Shown here piece by piece: positions 729-12,111 of a stretch of 12,111 nucleotides of DNA. The stretch's first letter is position 1, and each line of letters begins with the position of its first letter. Position numbers and translations under genes: made by a program. The notes under the pieces are model-generated. The model saw only the letters and a program-made list of their open reading frames with translations, was not told where the DNA came from and ran no database searches. Source of the DNA: a virus (lineage: Duplodnaviria; Heunggongvirae; Uroviricota; Caudoviricetes); the IMG/VR virus record IMGVR_UViG_2537562217_000015; one strand, given 5' to 3'.

Positions 729-4130
<3,402 letters not shown>

Positions 4131-4187: not shown

Positions 4188-4859
4188 TCAGCGACCAATC
4201 ACCACAACCTGACCACCGTCCCCTTCGTCTGCCGTGCTGATCTCCTGAGAAACCACCCGTGACCCCACGCGCATTTCACCGTACAGAACGGGCAGAACAT
4301 TGCTCTGGGCAACCATGTTATCCAGGGAGGAGAAATAGGTGTTCTGTTTGCCGTTATCCGTTGTCTGTGTACGGGGAGTTCTGGCTTTCGGTGCCAGCAT
4401 CTGCGCCACACCACCGAGCACCATACTGGCACCGAGAGAAAACAGGATGCCGGTCATACCACCGGCCCCAATGGCTGCCCCCCATGCTGCAAGGGTGGCT
4501 CCGGCGGTAAAGAATGATCCGGCAATGGCGGCAGCCCCCAGGACAATCTGGAATACGCCCCCTGACTTGGCCCCGGCGACTCTGGGAACAATATGAATCA
4601 CAGCGCCATCAGGCAGAGTCTCATGTAACTGCGCCGTTAACCCGGACGTGCTGACGTCCCGCCCGGCAATCCGTACCTGATACCAGCCGTCGCTCAGTTT
4701 CTGACGAAACGCCGGGAGCTGTGTGGCCAGTGCCCGGATGGCTTCAGCCCCCGTTTTCACACGAAGGTCGATGCGGCGACCAAATCGTTGTAAATCCCCG
4801 TAAAGGCAGATGCGCGCCATGCCCGGTGACGCCAGAGGGAGTGTGTGCGTCGCTGCCAT
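4188..4859 (-). CDS. I: Tail tip assembly protein I
   Basis: 223 aa, the same length as lambda gpI, with a glycine/alanine-rich hydrophobic C-terminal half. Its 5' end overlaps the 3' end of K by 103 nt in another frame, as in lambda. ATG at 4857-4859. Confidence 0.9.
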   Translation of the reverse strand: MAATHTLPLASPGMARICLYGDLQRFGRRIDLRVKTGAEAIRALATQLPAFRQKLSDGWYQVRIAGRDVSTSGLTAQLHETLPDGAVIHIVPRVAGAKSGGVFQIVLGAAAIAGSFFTAGATLAAWGAAIGAGGMTGILFSLGASMVLGGVAQMLAPKARTPRTQTTDNGKQNTYFSSLDNMVAQSNVLPVLYGEMRVGSRVVSQEISTADEGDGGQVVVIGR

Positions 4860-5500
4860 TTGTCGGTGTACCTCTCTCGTTTGCTCAGTTGTTCAGGAAT
4901 ATGGTGCAGCAGCTCGCCGTCGCCGCAGTAAATTGCGGCGTGATTCGGCACCGATGAACCAAAACAGCACAGCAGCACATCGCCCGGCTGTGCCGCTGAC
5001 AACGGCACCTGATACAGCCCCGTCGCCTCCAGATTATCCAGATAGAGATTCTGGCCGTGACGCCACCAGTCATCCTCACGATGAAAGTCCGGCATCTCAA
5101 TCCCCGCCAGATGATAAGCATCCCGGAACAGCGTGTAACAGTCCGTCACCCCGTGCTCAAAGCACCGCCCGGTAAGATGCGGCACACAGCGGAACTTGTG
5201 AATCGCCCCCCGGCAGACCAGCCACCACGGCAAATCACTCTGCACCTGCAGCCGCCGGTCGGCCTCACTCAGCCAGGGCAGACCACCGGGGTGGCTGTGG
5301 ACCAGCGCCACAATCTCACCCTGCATTTCTGCCTGCAGCCAGTCTTCCGGCGACATACGGAAATAATCCTCCGGCTCACCGGAGATATTCACGCCGGGGA
5401 AATATCTTTCCCCCTCCGGCGCTCTCACCACGAAGCCGCACGACTCCGCTGGCGCACATCGCCGGGCGTGCGCCAGAATCGCTGATTCTGTCTCTGTCAT
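4757..5500 (-). CDS. K: Tail tip assembly protein K (JAMM/MPN metalloprotease-like plus NlpC/P60-like domains)
   Basis: The ORF runs 4757..5542, but the first in-frame ATG is at 5498-5500 (MTETESAIL…), 4 nt after the L stop. It contains the JAMM motif HSHPGGLPWLSEAD (H-x-H-x7-S-x2-D) with an upstream E-x-C-G (AESCGF), and a downstream Cys/His-bearing region consistent with NlpC/P60. The lambda-annotated start would correspond to ATG at 5354-5356 (MSPEDW…). Confidence 0.85.
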   Translation of the reverse strand: MTETESAILAHARRCAPAESCGFVVRAPEGERYFPGVNISGEPEDYFRMSPEDWLQAEMQGEIVALVHSHPGGLPWLSEADRRLQVQSDLPWWLVCRGAIHKFRCVPHLTGRCFEHGVTDCYTLFRDAYHLAGIEMPDFHREDDWWRHGQNLYLDNLEATGLYQVPLSAAQPGDVLLCCFGSSVPNHAAIYCGDGELLHHIPEQLSKRERYTDKWQRRTHSLWRHRAWRASAFTGIYNDLVAASTFV

Positions 5501-5504
5501 GGGA

Positions 5505-6203
5505 TTACTGCGAAAGTTTGTTAATGGAAAGGAAGCCGCCAAAGTTGCCGACGTTATTGCGAAACTTACAGCCGCTCAGGCATTTGCTGCATTTATCCTT
5601 CGTGATATCGGACGTCGGCTGGTCATATTCATCCGCGACTGCCGGACCGTGATAACCGCACTCATCACCGCGATAGGTCCAGGTGCAGGTGTTGGCCAGC
5701 ATGATACGCCCCGGAAAAACAGCGCCGTCCGTTTCCGTCGGCGTGGACAGTACAAAAGAGGCACTGACCGCGCTCAGTTCGCTGCACTGCTCGATGCGCC
5801 AGCGGCTGATCACCTCCTGCTCCGGATCGGCGTCACTGTTTCCGTTGACGAAGTTCACCGCATCCAGAAAACGGGCGTAAACCTTACGCCGGACCACCGT
5901 TCCGCCGACCAGACTCTGCAGATCTTCCGCCATCCCGGTGACCATACCGTACAGGTTAGAAACCGTCAGCGTGGGGCGCGTACTGGTGCCTTTGCCATTC
6001 AGTTCAAAACCACTCCCCTGAATGGGGTATGCCTGATACTGCCGCCCCTGCCAGGTAACCGGCTCACCTTTTTCGTTCTGCTCATTACAGAAAAAATAAC
6101 GTTCACCACCGACCTCTGTCAGATCGATTTCCCAGAGCACCACCTGGGCTGACTGAGTGAGGCGTGTCGTCTCATGATGTGTTTCCTGTGGAATATCCTG
6201 CAT
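5505..6203 (-). CDS. L: Tail tip protein L
   Basis: 232 aa, the same length as lambda gpL, with a C-terminal cysteine cluster (…CGYHGP…CSKCLSGC…) consistent with the Fe-S site reported for gpL. ATG at 6201-6203 is preceded by GAGG, 9 nt after the M stop. Confidence 0.9.
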   Translation of the reverse strand: MQDIPQETHHETTRLTQSAQVVLWEIDLTEVGGERYFFCNEQNEKGEPVTWQGRQYQAYPIQGSGFELNGKGTSTRPTLTVSNLYGMVTGMAEDLQSLVGGTVVRRKVYARFLDAVNFVNGNSDADPEQEVISRWRIEQCSELSAVSASFVLSTPTETDGAVFPGRIMLANTCTWTYRGDECGYHGPAVADEYDQPTSDITKDKCSKCLSGCKFRNNVGNFGGFLSINKLSQ

Positions 6204-6212
6204 CAGAGCCTC

Positions 6213-6542
6213 CTATGCCACGACCTGTTCAAAATCTGCCGTTATGGTTACCCACAGCGCCCCCACGCTTGCCGACCATTTACGACAAACCACCCTAATC
6301 GGTTTCCAGTCATAAGGTGGCGTCCACTGAAATGCGCGGACGCCACCGTGCTGTTCCAGAAAGGCTTTTAAAGATGGGTGTTCACATTTACGAACACGTA
6401 TCGTCACGCTGTAAGTCGACAACTGGTTATTCAGTCCCGCCGCACGACGCTGTTCATAACCATCGCCCAGCTTCACTGTCACCACTTTCGGCTCTGATAC
6501 CACATTCATATCCGGGCGCACTTTCCAGTGAAACGTCTCCAT
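6213..6542 (-). CDS. M: Tail tip protein M
   Basis: 109 aa, the same length as lambda gpM. Its start codon overlaps the H stop (TAATG arrangement on the minus strand). It lies between H and L. Confidence 0.9.
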   Translation of the reverse strand: METFHWKVRPDMNVVSEPKVVTVKLGDGYEQRRAAGLNNQLSTYSVTIRVRKCEHPSLKAFLEQHGGVRAFQWTPPYDWKPIRVVCRKWSASVGALWVTITADFEQVVA

Positions 6543-9500
6543 TACCGATATGCTCCACTTAACCGACCACCATCACGGGCCTGCTGTTGCATAAAGTCCG
6601 CTGCAGCTTTTTTCCCAAGGTCATAAACCACCTTCAGGGCAGCCGGACCTATCTGCCCGTTCGTGCCATCGTTATTGATCTCAATGTTGTACTGCGGGGC
6701 AAACATCGCCATACCTGAACCACCAATATCCGCCACAACCCCCAGCTTACCGTCAGCACCACGACGAAGTGGCAGAATGGCTTCAGGTCCCGCTTCCCCC
6801 ATCACACCCGCGCCTTTTGCAAAAGCAAAAAACGTCGGACGGTTAACCACCGTGCCACTGTAGCGACTCAAATCAGCCGACTGATAAACACCGCCATCAG
6901 CATTGGCTACAAAATCAAAAGGCAGCGCGGAAGCAATGCCTTTTACCGCTTTCATTAAAGCTATCTGAGCCATGATTCTGGACATATCTGACAGCACAGA
7001 AGAAGTAAAAGATTTGAAATTGAGTTTGCCTGTAGTACAGAATGTCGCCAGCCAGTCACTCATGCTACTGAACGCAGACGTGAACAACTGTTCCACTGTC
7101 CAGGCTGTGTTATCCGCATTCTCAGTGACATTCTGGAGTGCACGCAGGACTCCGTTTTTCCAGTTACCCTGAGCAATTTCAAGCTGTTGCCAGTAACGGC
7201 GATTCTCATTCAGTTGTCGGTTCAGGCTCTCCGTCAGCGCCTGCTCGGCCTTTCTGTAGTCATCCGTGTTATATGTCCCTTTCTGCTCACTATCCCGCCT
7301 CAACTGCTCCAGCTGTTGCTGGTATTTCTGACGAAGACTCAGTTGTACCTGATATCGCTGCCGCTGCTGATCACCCATACCCACCGTGGCGATATCCAGA
7401 TTATGTTGTTGACGCTGAGCACGCTCTTCTTCAGCCAGTTGACTGGTCAGCTGAATTGTTTTTTTCTTCAGCTCGTTGAGTGCCGTCTGTTTCTGAAGCT
7501 CCTGCTGTTTTACATCCAGCAGCGTCAGTGCCTGAATCAGTTCATCTTTACGGGCCAGCACACTCTTTTCATCTTCCGTCAGTTTTTTCCCGTCCAGGTC
7601 GCTGATGCGCTGCTGCAGAGCCAGAAGCTGTTTATGCGCTTCTGTCATCCTTTCCGTGGCAATGCCTGCTGACTGTCTGGCAGCAGCAATCTGTCCTTCC
7701 ACCTGTGCCTGTTGCTGACTGTACTGCAGCAATAACCGGGTGGCCTCATCATTACGGGTTTCGCGTGTTTTTTTCTTACCGGATGCCAGGGCTTTCTCGT
7801 AACGTTCATTTTCACGTTGTATCGCCGCATCCCTGACAGTCTGATCGGCGTACTGCATGGCATTAATACGCGCAATTTCACGCTGATGTCGTGCTGCTTC
7901 CGTTTCATTCATCCGGTTCAGTGCAGCATTTTCAGCATTACGGCGTTTCTGTTGCTCCTGATAATTCCGCTCTGCCTGCTCATTTGCATCCTGCAAATCC
8001 TTCTGGCGTTTTTTCTCCTGAAGCTCGTTAAGACGCTGCTGATCGTACTCAACCTGAGAAAATGATGCCGTCCAGGGAAGTCTTTTCGCCCGCGACACTT
8101 TCTCCTGTAAAGCGGAAATCTGTTCATCCAGCGAGTCTTCAAGACCAATATTCATGGCCGCATCCCAGAAACGACTCCATAAATCAGACAGATACTTCAG
8201 CGTACTGCCCAGCGCATTGAGGTTATTATCAATATCCGCAGTACGCCGACCGGTTTCCTCTGCCAGTGCAGACATGGCTATCCGTGCCGCATCACTGGAC
8301 CGCCCCTGTTCCCCAAGGACGCGTATCTGCTCAAGCTGAGTGGCAGTAAGAAAATGCAGCTCATTGTCCAGAGCCTTCGCGGCATTTACAGGATCATCCT
8401 TCAGCCGCTTAAACTGATTTATGGTATCGCCGACCGACTGGCCAACCGATCGCTCCATCTGTGCGGCAGCTCTCGCCACCATACCGATATCGTTTCCACG
8501 AAATGCACCACTCCCCACCACCTGAGCCAGCGCACCGGCTGCAGCATGTTGCGTAATACCATTCCCGGAAATAGCACGACTGAGCGTCCACAGCTGCCCG
8601 GCAGTGACTCCGGCATAATGCCCCGTCAGCGACAACTGGCGGTTAAATTCTTCCCCCTCCTTCTGACCATCATACCAGGCTTTACCCAGACCATAGACGG
8701 CCGCGGCAATACCGCCAATAACCCCGCCCAGCATCATGCCTTTCGGTGACATCAGTGTGTCTATCCATCCGGCACGGTTAGCCAGCGTTATCCCGGATCC
8801 CCTCAGCGCACCTAAATTGCCGCGAGCCAGTTCACCTATCAGAACGCCTATCTCCTGGCGGGCCGCTGCACTTTTCAGACCCAGCGAATGCGTGGCTTTT
8901 CCTGCCTGCTCCATTTTGCGGATATACACTTCTGCAGCACTGCTTACCCCCAGCTGGGCAGCCTTAGCACGAAGCAACTCAGAAGAGGAAAGATTCTGGC
9001 GGGTTGCCTGCTCTTTAAGCTGACGGATAAACGCCACTTTCTGTCGGGTAGCCTCTGCCTCAGCCTGCGTAAGAACACGGGTTTTCGCCGTAACCTCAGA
9101 AATCAGCGCCAGATAATCCTGCTGACCAATCCCGCCACTGTTTCTGGCCTGTCGGATCTGCTGCTGAATACGCTGTAATTCCTGCAGCCCCGCACTGGCC
9201 TGTTTCACACTGTCAATCTGACGATAAAACGCGGCAGCCGCTTTATCCTGAGCCTCCGCCAGAGCCATGGCCTGCGCCTGTTCCTCGCGCATTTTCTGGC
9301 TCAGTGCCTCCATACGCTGGCGGGTTTGCTCCACCTCGCGGGCCATGCGTTCATGAGCCTGTGCGCTCTTCTCCACCGTCTGCGCATGGACGGATGCGGC
9401 TGTTGCAGCCGAAGAAGCCGCCTGCATTGTCTGCCGGGCGGCCTGAGTCTGACGCTCCATAAAACGCTGCATACGGGCAGAAGACCGTTCTGCATCGCTG

Positions 9501-9598
9501 GCTGCACCATTCAGAAGGTTTTTGATACGGGGAATTTCATTTTTAAACTCTGCCGCATCAATCCCCAAATCAATGACCAGGTTGGCTATCTGGTCCAT
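6542..9598 (-). CDS. H: Tail tape-measure protein (gpH equivalent, variant and longer than lambda H)
   Basis: The ORF spans 6542..9628. The likely start is ATG 9596-9598 (MDQIANLVIDL…), preceded by GGAGGTG with a 6-nt spacer, giving about 1018 aa. It has a long, highly helical Q/A/E/R-rich central region, a hydrophobic glycine-rich segment (MMLGGVIGGIAAAVYGLG), and a C-terminal INNDGTNGQIGPAALK segment resembling the lambda H C-terminus. It sits immediately upstream of M. Confidence 0.9.
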   Translation of the reverse strand: MDQIANLVIDLGIDAAEFKNEIPRIKNLLNGAASDAERSSARMQRFMERQTQAARQTMQAASSAATAASVHAQTVEKSAQAHERMAREVEQTRQRMEALSQKMREEQAQAMALAEAQDKAAAAFYRQIDSVKQASAGLQELQRIQQQIRQARNSGGIGQQDYLALISEVTAKTRVLTQAEAEATRQKVAFIRQLKEQATRQNLSSSELLRAKAAQLGVSSAAEVYIRKMEQAGKATHSLGLKSAAARQEIGVLIGELARGNLGALRGSGITLANRAGWIDTLMSPKGMMLGGVIGGIAAAVYGLGKAWYDGQKEGEEFNRQLSLTGHYAGVTAGQLWTLSRAISGNGITQHAAAGALAQVVGSGAFRGNDIGMVARAAAQMERSVGQSVGDTINQFKRLKDDPVNAAKALDNELHFLTATQLEQIRVLGEQGRSSDAARIAMSALAEETGRRTADIDNNLNALGSTLKYLSDLWSRFWDAAMNIGLEDSLDEQISALQEKVSRAKRLPWTASFSQVEYDQQRLNELQEKKRQKDLQDANEQAERNYQEQQKRRNAENAALNRMNETEAARHQREIARINAMQYADQTVRDAAIQRENERYEKALASGKKKTRETRNDEATRLLLQYSQQQAQVEGQIAAARQSAGIATERMTEAHKQLLALQQRISDLDGKKLTEDEKSVLARKDELIQALTLLDVKQQELQKQTALNELKKKTIQLTSQLAEEERAQRQQHNLDIATVGMGDQQRQRYQVQLSLRQKYQQQLEQLRRDSEQKGTYNTDDYRKAEQALTESLNRQLNENRRYWQQLEIAQGNWKNGVLRALQNVTENADNTAWTVEQLFTSAFSSMSDWLATFCTTGKLNFKSFTSSVLSDMSRIMAQIALMKAVKGIASALPFDFVANADGGVYQSADLSRYSGTVVNRPTFFAFAKGAGVMGEAGPEAILPLRRGADGKLGVVADIGGSGMAMFAPQYNIEINNDGTNGQIGPAALKVVYDLGKKAAADFMQQQARDGGRLSGAYR

Positions 9599-9683
9599 AA
9601 CGCACACCTCCGGAAATACCTTCCCCAAGATGCATCAGTTCTTCGTCCGTTCGCTCCGGTATCCCGTTCTCTTCCGGTAAAAG
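9599..9683 (-). pseudogene. Possible 3' remnant of the upstream tail assembly chaperone gene (G/G-T equivalent), truncated by IS66
   Basis: 85 bp of non-IS DNA between the IS66 left end and the H start. It is open on the minus strand in two frames, one ending at TGA 9635-9637 and one running on to TGA 9570-9572, overlapping the H start. In lambda the T reading frame ends overlapping the H start. This is an inference; no start codon or upstream part is present. Confidence 0.25.
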
Positions 9684-9710
9684 GTAAGCGTCGTCTCAGC
9701 ACCGTCTGGC
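9684..9710 (+). repeat. Putative IS66 left terminal inverted repeat
   Basis: Begins GTAAGCGTCGTCTCAGCACCGTCTGGC. The exact length is unknown because the right inverted repeat is outside the window. The 8 bp immediately to the left (9676-9683, GGTAAAAG) is the candidate target-site duplication. Confidence 0.45.
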
Positions 9711-9764
9711 AGATCCTGAAATTCCTGAGAGAATAGTGGACACCAAATATGGTGGACGCTATTC

Positions 9765-10169
9765 ATGAAATCATTAACCGCAGTGCGTAAAAAAAGCCCT
9801 AATTATCCCGTTGAGTTCAAAATCAAAATGGTGGAACTCTCGCATCGACCAGAGATCTCCGTAGCGCAACTCGCTCGTGAGCATGGGATCAACGATAATT
9901 TGCTGTTCAAGTGGCGCCAGTACTGGCGCGAAGGAAAACTACGTCCTCCTTCAACAACAGAAAACAACGTGCCTGAGCTGCTCCCGATAACACTTGATGC
10001 CGAAGATGTTGTCCCTACAACCTCCCCCCGGTCACAACCTGTAGCTGCTGCGACACCTGAATCACTCAATATCAGCTGTGAAGTGACGTTCCGGCACGGA
10101 TCACTCCGTCTGAATGGTGCCATCAGCGAAAATATCCTGAACCTGCTGATACGGGAGCTCAAACGTTGA
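9765..10169 (+). CDS. tnpA: IS66-family accessory protein TnpA (Orf1)
   Basis: 134-aa ORF starting 81 bp inside the IS end. The N-terminal region (ISVAQLAREHGINDNLLFKWRQ) looks like a helix-turn-helix. Its stop overlaps the next ORF's start by 4 nt. Confidence 0.85.
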   Translation: MKSLTAVRKKSPNYPVEFKIKMVELSHRPEISVAQLAREHGINDNLLFKWRQYWREGKLRPPSTTENNVPELLPITLDAEDVVPTTSPRSQPVAAATPESLNISCEVTFRHGSLRLNGAISENILNLLIRELKR

Positions 10170-10513
10170 TCCCATTACCATCAGGGACAAAGATCTGGCT
10201 GGTCGCTGGCATCACCGATATGAGAAACGGCTTCAACGGCCTGGCGGCAAAGGTGCAGACGACGCTGAAAGACGATCCGATGTCAGGTCACGTTTTTATC
10301 TTCCGTGGGCGTAATGGCAGTCAGGTAAAGCTCCTCTGGTCTACCGGCGATGGACTGTGTCTGCTGACCAAACGGCTGGAGCGCGGCCGCTTCGCCTGGC
10401 CGTCAGCCCGGGATGGCAAAGTGTTCCTCACACCGGCACAGCTGGCGATGCTGCTGGAAGGTATCGACTGGCGGCAGCCTAAAAGACTACTTACGTCCCT
10501 GACTATGTTGTAA
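10166..10513 (+). CDS. tnpB: IS66-family TnpB (Orf2); unrelated to IS200/IS605 TnpB
   Basis: 115-aa ORF (MIPLPSGTKIWLVAGITDMRNGFNGL…), the typical size and sequence character of IS66 Orf2. Its apparent start is TTG at 10166-10168, overlapping the tnpA stop (TTGA). Confidence 0.85.
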   Translation: MIPLPSGTKIWLVAGITDMRNGFNGLAAKVQTTLKDDPMSGHVFIFRGRNGSQVKLLWSTGDGLCLLTKRLERGRFAWPSARDGKVFLTPAQLAMLLEGIDWRQPKRLLTSLTML

Positions 10514-10561: not shown

Positions 10562-12099
10562 ATGAGCAGCTCACTTCCTGACGATATCAATGCACTGAAA
10601 CGTCTCCTTGCCGAACAGGAGGCGCTGAACCGTGCCCTGCTGGAAAAGCTGAACGAGCGTGAACGCGAAATAGACCATCTGCAGGCACAGCTGGATAAGC
10701 TGCGCCGGATGAACTTCGGCAGCCGCTCGGAAAAAGTCTCCCGTCGTATCGCACAGATGGAAGCTGACCTGAAGGCACTTCAGAAAGAAAGTGATACCCT
10801 TACCGGTCGGGTTGACGACCCGGCCGTGCAGCGCCCGCTGCGTCAAACCCGCACCCGCAAACCGTTCCCCGAATCACTCCCCCGCGATGAAAAACGGCTG
10901 CTGCCGGCAGCGTCATGCTGCCCGGAATGTGGAGGCTCGCTGAGCTATCTGGGTGAGGATGCCGCCGAACAGCTGGAGTTGATGCGCAGCGCCTTCCGGG
11001 TTATCCGGACTGTACGTGAAAAGCATGCCTGTACTCAGTGCGATGCCATCGTGCAGGCCCCCGCGCCTTCACGGCCCATCGAGCGGGGTATCGCAGGACC
11101 GGGGCTGCTGGCCCGCGTGCTGATCTCAAAGTATGCAGAGCACACCCCGCTGTACCGCCAGTCTGAAATGTACGGCCGCCAGGGCGTGGAGCTGAGTCGT
11201 TCACTGCTGTCGGGCTGGGTGGATGCATGCTGCCGGCTACTGTCACCGCTGGAAGAAGCGCTTCAGGACTATGTGCTGACTGACGGTAAGCTCCATGCTG
11301 ATGACACGCCTGTCCCGGTGCTGTTGCCAGGCAATAAGAAAACGAAGACCGGGCGGTTATGGACCTACGTTCGTGACGACCGTAACGCCGGGTCAACGCT
11401 GGCGCCGGCGGTGTGGTTCGCTTACAGCCCGGACAGAAAAGGCATCCATCCGCAGACCCATCTTGCGGGGTTCAGTGGTGTACTGCAGGCGGATGCATAC
11501 GCCGGGTTCAACGAGCTGTACCGGGATGGCCGGATAACGGAAGCCGCCTGTTGGGCTCACGCCCGCCGTAAAATCCACGATGTGCACGTTCGCACCCCGT
11601 CAGCCCTGACGGAGGAAGCGCTGAACGGATCGGCGAACTGTACGCCATCGAGGCAGAGATAAGGGGAATGACGGCGGAGCAGCGCCTTGCCGAACGTCAG
11701 TTGAAAACGAAACCGCTGCTGAAATCCCTGGAAAGCTGGCTGCGTGAAAAGATGAAAACCCTGTCGCGACACTCAGAACTGGCGAAAGCGTTCGCATACG
11801 CCCTGAACCAGTGGCTGGCGCTGACGTACTATGCAGATGATGGCTGGGCTGAGGCGGACAATAACATCGCTGAAAATGCGTTGCGGATGGTCAGTCTGGG
11901 CCGCAAAAACTACCTGTTCTTCGGTTCGGATCATGGAGGAGAGCGGGGAGCGCTGCTGTACAGCCTGATCGGGACGTGCAAACTGAACGGAGTGGAGCCA
12001 GAAAGCTACCTCCGCTATGTCCTTGACGTCATAGCCGACTGGCCGATAAACCGGGTCGGCGAACTGCTCCCCTGGCGCGTAGCACTGCCGACTGAATAA
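10562..12099 (+). pseudogene. tnpC: IS66-family transposase TnpC, interrupted by a frameshift
   Basis: Two adjacent ORFs in different frames (10562..11662, 366 aa; 11668..12099, 143 aa) that together give about 510 aa. There is an N-terminal leucine-zipper-like coiled coil ([38 protein letters not shown]) and a CxxC…CxxC motif (CCPECGG…CTQCD). The reading frame is continuous across 11621-11628 (CTGAACGG) if one base is restored, giving …EEAL[21 protein letters not shown]…. Confidence 0.75.
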
Positions 12100-12111
12100 C
12101 ACATCCCCGTC

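Follow-up and report, generated by a model that had tools for sequence, protein, structure and literature searches.

Assembly of siphovirus tails depends on the chaperones gpG and gpGT, both of which are essential; in lambda the G domain is the part that binds the tape measure protein gpH, and recruitment of the major tail protein gpV falls to the T domain (PMC4493119, PMC5009743, PMC3296357). These chaperones work on cognate tape measure and tube proteins (PMC4493119, PMC5009743), and when gpT is disrupted in phage TP901-1, the capsids that form lack tails (PMC4493119). The lambda G and G-T products (PF06894 and PF06223) are encoded between V and H, with T in the −1 frame and the T stop overlapping the H start, and the prophage locus analysed here has the same arrangement. 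Its T is 38% identical to lambda T and shorter (109 codons against 144, lambda carrying an extra C-terminal GGVR[FY]G repeat), and its candidate slippery site reads GGAAAAG where lambda has GGGAAAG. Closer relatives are Ayreon, mEp460 and phage cdtI, lambdoid siphoviruses of E. coli that are 98–100% identical to our sequence over the H start and T end (Ayreon also 96–97% over H–L) and share its tail gene order. In those isolated phages, each with a named host, T is uninterrupted, whereas in our prophage sequence, and not in lambda, T is cut after codon 75 by the insertion sequence ISEc22 (T::ISEc22).

The whole stretch of DNA analysed (the window; 12,111 nt) corresponds, in reverse complement, to a complete draft contig (APXQ01000023.1) from assembly GCA_000356525.2, one in a series of E. 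coli drafts that are closely related. Its minus strand carries a lambda-type tail module in the order lom-J-I-K-L-M-H. Gene calls and Pfam searches on the reverse complement placed lom at 63–662, J at 729–4127, I at 4188–4760, K at 4757–5500, L at 5505–6203 and M at 6213–6542, followed in the list of open reading frames by H at 6542–9598, all on the minus strand and all with the expected Pfam families and lengths. The tape measure gene H is intact at 1018 aa (TMP_2, TMP_4 and Tape_meas_lam_C), and its protein is identical to H of two uninterrupted prophages, L003 and L004. Its ATG lies at 9598, the start also annotated in Ayreon and mEp460, and a Shine–Dalgarno sequence, GGAGGTG, can be read on the same strand at 9606–9612. 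The downstream tail genes H-M-L-K-I-J-lom are thus intact, as the earlier note had them. Gene L, intact at 232 aa in the window, appears as pieces of 178 and 65 aa in two sister assemblies (contigs L007 and L009), which is further evidence of indel errors in these drafts. A search of the entire window against Rfam found no match.

The remainder of the window, from 9684 to its last base at 12111 on the plus strand, consists of bases 1–2428 of the 2454-bp element ISEc22, which puts a name to the IS66-family element recognised in the earlier note. We made this identification through copies annotated by RefSeq/PGAP with an 'IS66-like element ISEc22 family transposase'; the element in the window shows 99.9% identity across its 2428 bp with copies carried by E. 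coli strain 510016, with one substitution and one 1-nt deletion. Two of the 510016 copies are flanked by perfect 8-bp target duplications (GCTAAATC and GGATAAGC), which sets the ends at GTAAGCG...CGCTTAC and the full length at 2454 bp. The left imperfect terminal inverted repeat occupies 9684–9709 (plus strand) and begins GTAAGCGT; its first 8 bases are identical to those of the right repeat and further matches continue to about base 26, the right repeat having been read from full copies and sister contigs, as the window ends before it. Terminal repeats starting GTAAGCG are, as Han and colleagues reportedly set out in 2001, a signature of the IS66 family. The plus strand also has the IS66-type gene order tnpA-tnpB-tnpC: tnpA (9765–10169, 134 aa, HTH_Tnp_1, PF01527), tnpB (10166–10513, 115 aa, TnpB_IS66, PF05717) and the DDE_Tnp_IS66 transposase gene tnpC (10562–12099; PF13007, PF13005, PF03050 and PF13817).

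In the window tnpC is read as two pieces of 366 and 143 aa, owing to a 1-nt deletion in an AAA run at about 11623–11625 (GCTGAAACGG changed to GCTGAACGG). The same frameshift is present on every IS-bearing contig of the sister assembly GCA_000356465.2, together with another in tnpB (111 aa), while tnpC is intact at 512 aa in a second sister assembly, GCA_000357405.2. A change shared by all IS contigs of one assembly and absent from its sister is not assignable to the copy in the window, and it is probably a collapsed-repeat consensus, a homopolymer error or a sequencing error rather than a property of this copy. Sister contigs also extend 1–2 nt beyond the ISEc22 terminus, and what they show there is consensus ('G', or 'TC' in L009) rather than true flank, so contig ends at repeats are unreliable in these assemblies.

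Sister genomes (contigs L053–L062; GCA_000356465.2 and GCA_000357745.1) hold at least five copies of ISEc22, each with its own 8-bp duplication. Besides the copy in T, we found ISEc22 in gemA of a Mu-like prophage, between a TraI_2-family relaxase gene and an integrase gene, between finO and repA in a plasmid region, and on the chromosome between a GDPD gene and a Kdo/ribonucleotide-reductase region. A target-site preference, hinted at by matches running a few bases past the IS end, was considered and rejected: the left flanks of 20 further copies from many genera gave no consensus.

The left end of ISEc22, GTAAGCG at 9684, is 86 bp from the H start codon, with 85 bp of phage DNA (9599–9683) in between, exactly as the earlier note had placed it. 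The boundary was located from both sides. Phages and uninterrupted prophages agree with the window as far as 9683, with one further, ambiguous base shared, and GTAAGCG is also where ISEc22 starts in independent copies flanked by 8-bp duplications. Of the three minus-strand frames, two run open through the 85 bp, again as noted earlier, and one of them is the T frame, whose stop at 9570–9572 coincides with the first coordinate given in the earlier note. The 3' remnant of T therefore spans 9570–9683 (minus strand) and encodes 37 codons, LLPEENGIPERTDEELMHLGEGISGGVRYGPDSQPGH, plus the stop, the codons for LLP lying within the target duplication. Its overlap with the H start, which the earlier note had expected from lambda, amounts to 29 nt, compared with 8 nt in lambda.

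That the remnant is coding rather than intergenic is borne out by related phages. Window positions 9200–9683 are 100% identical to Ayreon, where 9570–9683 falls within a gpGT-like coding sequence and the rest within H, and 98–99% identical to mEp460, phage cdtI and others. The stretch is annotated in Ayreon, mEp460, cdtI and others as the end of a T or gpGT-like gene that overlaps the H start. In the uninterrupted prophages L003 and L004, G (128 aa, PF06894) is followed by an intact T (109 aa, PF06223), and comparison with these puts the ISEc22 insertion behind codon 75 of the 109. Read in phage orientation, the sequence is ...GACGACGCTTAC|CTTTTACCGGAAGAG in the window and ...GATTTCAGCCTTTTACCGGAAGAG at the empty site. 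The suggestion that the insertion lay in the G/G-T chaperone gene can thus be narrowed to its T part.

We found the identical left junction in seven assemblies. The exact junction was absent from 5,426 complete RefSeq E. coli genomes and from the GTDB species representatives, so no closed genome among those searched could show both junctions in one molecule. One contig of an unrelated, more recent assembly (L012 1–90; GCA_044914725.1) starts 83 nt upstream of an identical H, inside the CTTTTACC site, which suggests either that it carries the T::ISEc22 allele too or that a repeat broke the contig at this very position.

The insertion also explains where the contig ends: the window stops 25 bp before the right terminus of ISEc22. 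Because the contig ends in a repeat, its right flank lies outside the window, and the right junction was read in sister assemblies. We built the product expected from an 8-bp duplication, in which the T frame would run CTT TTA CC|G TAA and give a 75-aa protein, T', ending LLP*. An exact-sequence look-up showed that the predicted T' is present in public data in 75-aa and 71-aa forms (the latter from an alternative start), both ending LLP, with the 71-aa form named from E. coli P0298942.2 and E. coli 2862600. Among the matches listed, 11 sister assemblies have contigs that carry terminase, portal, capsid, Z, U, V, G and T' and then run into the right end of ISEc22. The partner junction reads ...GATTTCAGCCTTTTACC|GTAAGCGTGCAGC..., its right side being the ISEc22 right end, also written ...CAGCCTTTTACC|GTAAGCGTGCAGCAAG..., so that the order in these contigs is ...V-G-T'-CTTTTACC|ISEc22 right end. 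The left copy of the duplication is GGTAAAAG at 9676–9683 (CTTTTACC in phage orientation), present once at the empty site of L003 and L004. As the right-junction contigs carry the second copy of CTTTTACC directly against the IS right end, the 8-bp duplication GGTAAAAG is confirmed. Beyond the right end of the IS in the sister assemblies there thus lie, as the earlier note had proposed, a duplication and the rest of T, and after them G, V and the upstream genes. A search with a tnpC fragment for the partner contig in the window's own assembly, GCA_000356525.2, returned only sister assemblies among the matches listed.

Since the window is a draft contig ending in a repeat, its IS–phage junction could in principle be an assembly chimera. 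We give this virtually no credence, as the left junction is found in seven assemblies and the right in 11 (among the matches listed), and the two together make up a perfect 8-bp duplication at a site where uninterrupted prophages have unbroken sequence. Both junction contigs are present in five assemblies among the matches listed. A subtler alternative is that recombination between ISEc22 copies moved the H–J half away from the V-G-T' half, the contig break within the IS hiding the rearrangement. There are at least five copies per genome and the draft contigs end in the IS; moreover, the two bases that sister contig L009 has beyond the right end of the IS are 'TC' where 'GG' is expected. However, assembly GCA_000356465.2 has five ISEc22 left junctions, each with a right-junction partner of the same 8-bp duplication (GGTTGGTT, CTGCGTGC, GGTAAAAG, GGGGAGCA and AGGAAATA), four of the partners in the same assembly and the fifth in GCA_000357745.1. 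Matching duplications at all five junctions argue for simple insertions without later recombination between IS copies. The odd end bases are accounted for by collapsed-repeat consensus, given that the left-junction contigs of one assembly all end in the same extra base, and T would be disrupted even had the halves been separated. Recombination is accordingly very improbable, and a simple insertion of ISEc22 into T is the reading we carry forward.

We analysed what this insertion removes. From annotations and gene calls in L001, L002, L003 and lambda, together with frame analysis, T lies between G (PF06894) and the tape measure gene; its frame is −1 with respect to that of G, and its last codons overlap the start of H. 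The permitted interval (L003 9660–9700) holds a sole candidate slippery site for the shift from G to T, CCG GAA AAG TCC TGA, with the heptamer GGAAAAG. Compared with the GGGAAAG of lambda, it would allow the same A-site slip of a lysine codon from AAG to AAA, with GAA as the P-site codon, and it departs from the canonical X XXY YYZ. Since the site differs from that of lambda, it is synteny and reading frame that point to expression of a G-T fusion here. Uninterrupted T matches Phage_tail_T (PF06223) at 56.5 bits over residues 24–99 (cutoff 25.9), whereas T' scores 39.9 bits and covers profile positions 1–47 of 73 only; the 37-aa remnant alone has no PF06223 match. The last 34 residues of T are therefore cut off, as the earlier note had supposed for the 3' end of the gene, and with them 26 of the 73 profile positions (36% of the domain). 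Uninterrupted T also aligns with lambda T (the earlier note had proposed such a check for the translated remnant), and in an alignment of 18 homologues, including lambda T and reaching down to 37% identity, the lost part holds the invariant residues D85, G97, G98 and R100 and the near-invariant E93, which together form the motif GEGIxGGVRYGPD.

It is conceivable that the insertion is real but harmless, either because the last 34 residues of T are dispensable or because another prophage supplies the chaperone. The lost segment begins in a variable, acidic linker (alignment columns 83–95), and the strongest conservation coincides with signals for H. The codons of GGVRYG, the most conserved motif of the T family (window 9599–9620; 925–950 in the lambda sequence, L026), consist of the same nucleotides as the Shine–Dalgarno sequence and ATG of H, with GGAGGTG (the Shine–Dalgarno sequence of H in the window, inside the T remnant) encoding the G-G-V of the motif; the corresponding sequence is GGAGGTG or GGAGGAG in this phage and lambda. 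Because these codons double as H initiation signals, the motif may be conserved partly for H initiation and need not reflect T function. An E. coli cell often harbours more than one lambdoid prophage, another of which might complement the defect, and the sister genomes hold at least one further prophage, which is Mu-like. Against this, 36% of the Pfam domain is gone, and two of the conserved positions, D85 and E93, lie away from the H initiation signals. Lambda T has a second, internal GGVRFGPD copy without an ATG, which suggests that the motif also matters at the protein level. Complementation is made less plausible by the fact that a tail chaperone works with the tape measure and tube proteins cognate to it (PMC4493119, PMC5009743). 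Overall, we regard a harmless insertion as distinctly unlikely, and the loss of 34 residues with their conserved positions leads us to expect a non-functional GT' and tail-less particles.

We considered whether polarity might be the main defect, with the antisense, untranslated 2.45-kb IS stopping late transcription so that H-M-L-K-I-J would not be expressed. The earlier note had described these genes as separated from the late promoter. Physically this is correct, in that H–J are now 2454 bp further from the upstream promoters, but a functional polar block would be doubtful if Q antitermination governs late transcription here, as it does in lambda. The polymerase that makes lambdoid late transcripts is modified by Q and disregards both intrinsic and Rho-dependent terminators, so that it would read through any in the IS, and lambda N antitermination relieves IS polarity. 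We found no promoter-like site facing H on the minus strand between 9400 and 12111, and the antisense strand of the IS has only short random open reading frames, which would favour Rho; terminator-like sites on that strand, however, numbered 2, against 2.8 expected in shuffled sequence. Scanned for terminators or an outward promoter, ISEc22 gave nothing above shuffled expectation. The IS genes point away from H, which retains its own Shine–Dalgarno sequence and start codon. Polarity is compatible with truncation of T and is not needed to explain the defect; as its principal cause it seems to us unlikely, though it deserves some weight.

Taken together, our analysis makes it highly likely that ISEc22 transposed into T of a lambda-like prophage, truncating GT', and that most likely no functional tails can be made. 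In the sequence of events that we propose, the 2454-bp element entered the T reading frame and generated the 8-bp target duplication CTTTTACC; the right end of the IS supplies an immediate in-frame stop (CTT TTA CC|G TAA), so that T, and with it the predicted G-T fusion, ends ...DFSLLP. The truncated GT' would most likely fail at the step at which gpV is recruited, and induction would be predicted to yield DNA-filled heads, without functional tails or infectious particles. An additional polar effect on H–J is possible and would be secondary. From the domain and alignment data we infer, on good grounds, that gpGT function, and hence tails, would be lost. The earlier note went further in calling the prophage cryptic, which overstates the damage: apart from T, all the genes seen in the retrieved head and tail modules are intact, and the prophage is very probably better described as tail-defective. 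We also examined the three findings named beforehand as speaking against an insertion in the chaperone gene, namely a flank other than a chaperone gene, the lack of a duplication and an intergenic remnant, and none held. This prophage, found in a clonal set of draft E. coli genomes, looks complete gene by gene and yet is very probably tail-defective. Completeness predictors that count intact genes would miss T::ISEc22, because the frameshifted T is poorly annotated.

The insertion point has a structural feature of its own. ISEc22 landed in the T-run of a small hairpin inside T, GGCTGA-TT-TCAGCC followed by TTTTACC (GGCTGATTTCAGCC-TTTTACC), located at 2480–2497 in L002, which corresponds to window positions of about 9679–9683 plus the missing T' side. 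A 40-nt region here folds at −12.5 kcal/mol, and the annotators of mEp460 marked the hairpin as a rho-independent terminator.

Qin-like cryptic prophages (L016, L027–L030, L033 and L034) encode an identical 75-aa T' ending LLP*, at loci that adjoin ydfI/ydfJ-type mannitol dehydrogenase and MFS transporter genes. There the same product has arisen by a deletion without an IS, in prophages that are heavily deleted. In L028 (10199–10250), for example, the deletion joins T to an internal 148-bp fragment of H at a 4-nt TACC microhomology. This junction, with no trace of an IS, led us to reject an origin of the Qin-like T' from the present insertion followed by a later deletion. No more than 4 nt separate the breakpoint of this widespread Qin-like remnant from the point at which ISEc22 inserted, a closeness that is striking but that we take as coincidence, since the look-up selects identical products. 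That the hairpin and T-run in T form a recurrent breakpoint in lambdoid prophages is a highly doubtful proposition; if true, the hairpin site would be a fragile spot repeatedly disabling tails during prophage domestication.

The insertion is young. All 4420 of 4420 bases of phage DNA compared between the window and the uninterrupted prophage L003 are identical (the 3' end of T, H, M, L and the first part of K), as are 9923 of 9924 bases (99.99%) of the left half in a sister contig. Flanks that are 100% and 99.99% identical to uninterrupted copies point to a recent, clone-specific insertion. The locus thus offers a clean and datable first step of prophage decay, consisting of one IS insertion whose flanks still match uninterrupted copies.

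Neither the element, a common one in E. coli, nor the gene is new. The ISEc22 copies of strain 510016 have the same tnpA-tnpB-tnpC genes, GTAAGCG termini, 2454-bp length and 8-bp duplication, and the insertion site alone differs. IS-driven prophage decay is known in E. coli, for example from IS629 in prophages of O157, where an IS has likewise entered a structural gene of a lambdoid prophage that is intact in other respects; the IS family and the gene are different here. T::ISEc22 is therefore a known IS in a known gene, a case of ordinary prophage decay with nothing mechanistically new.
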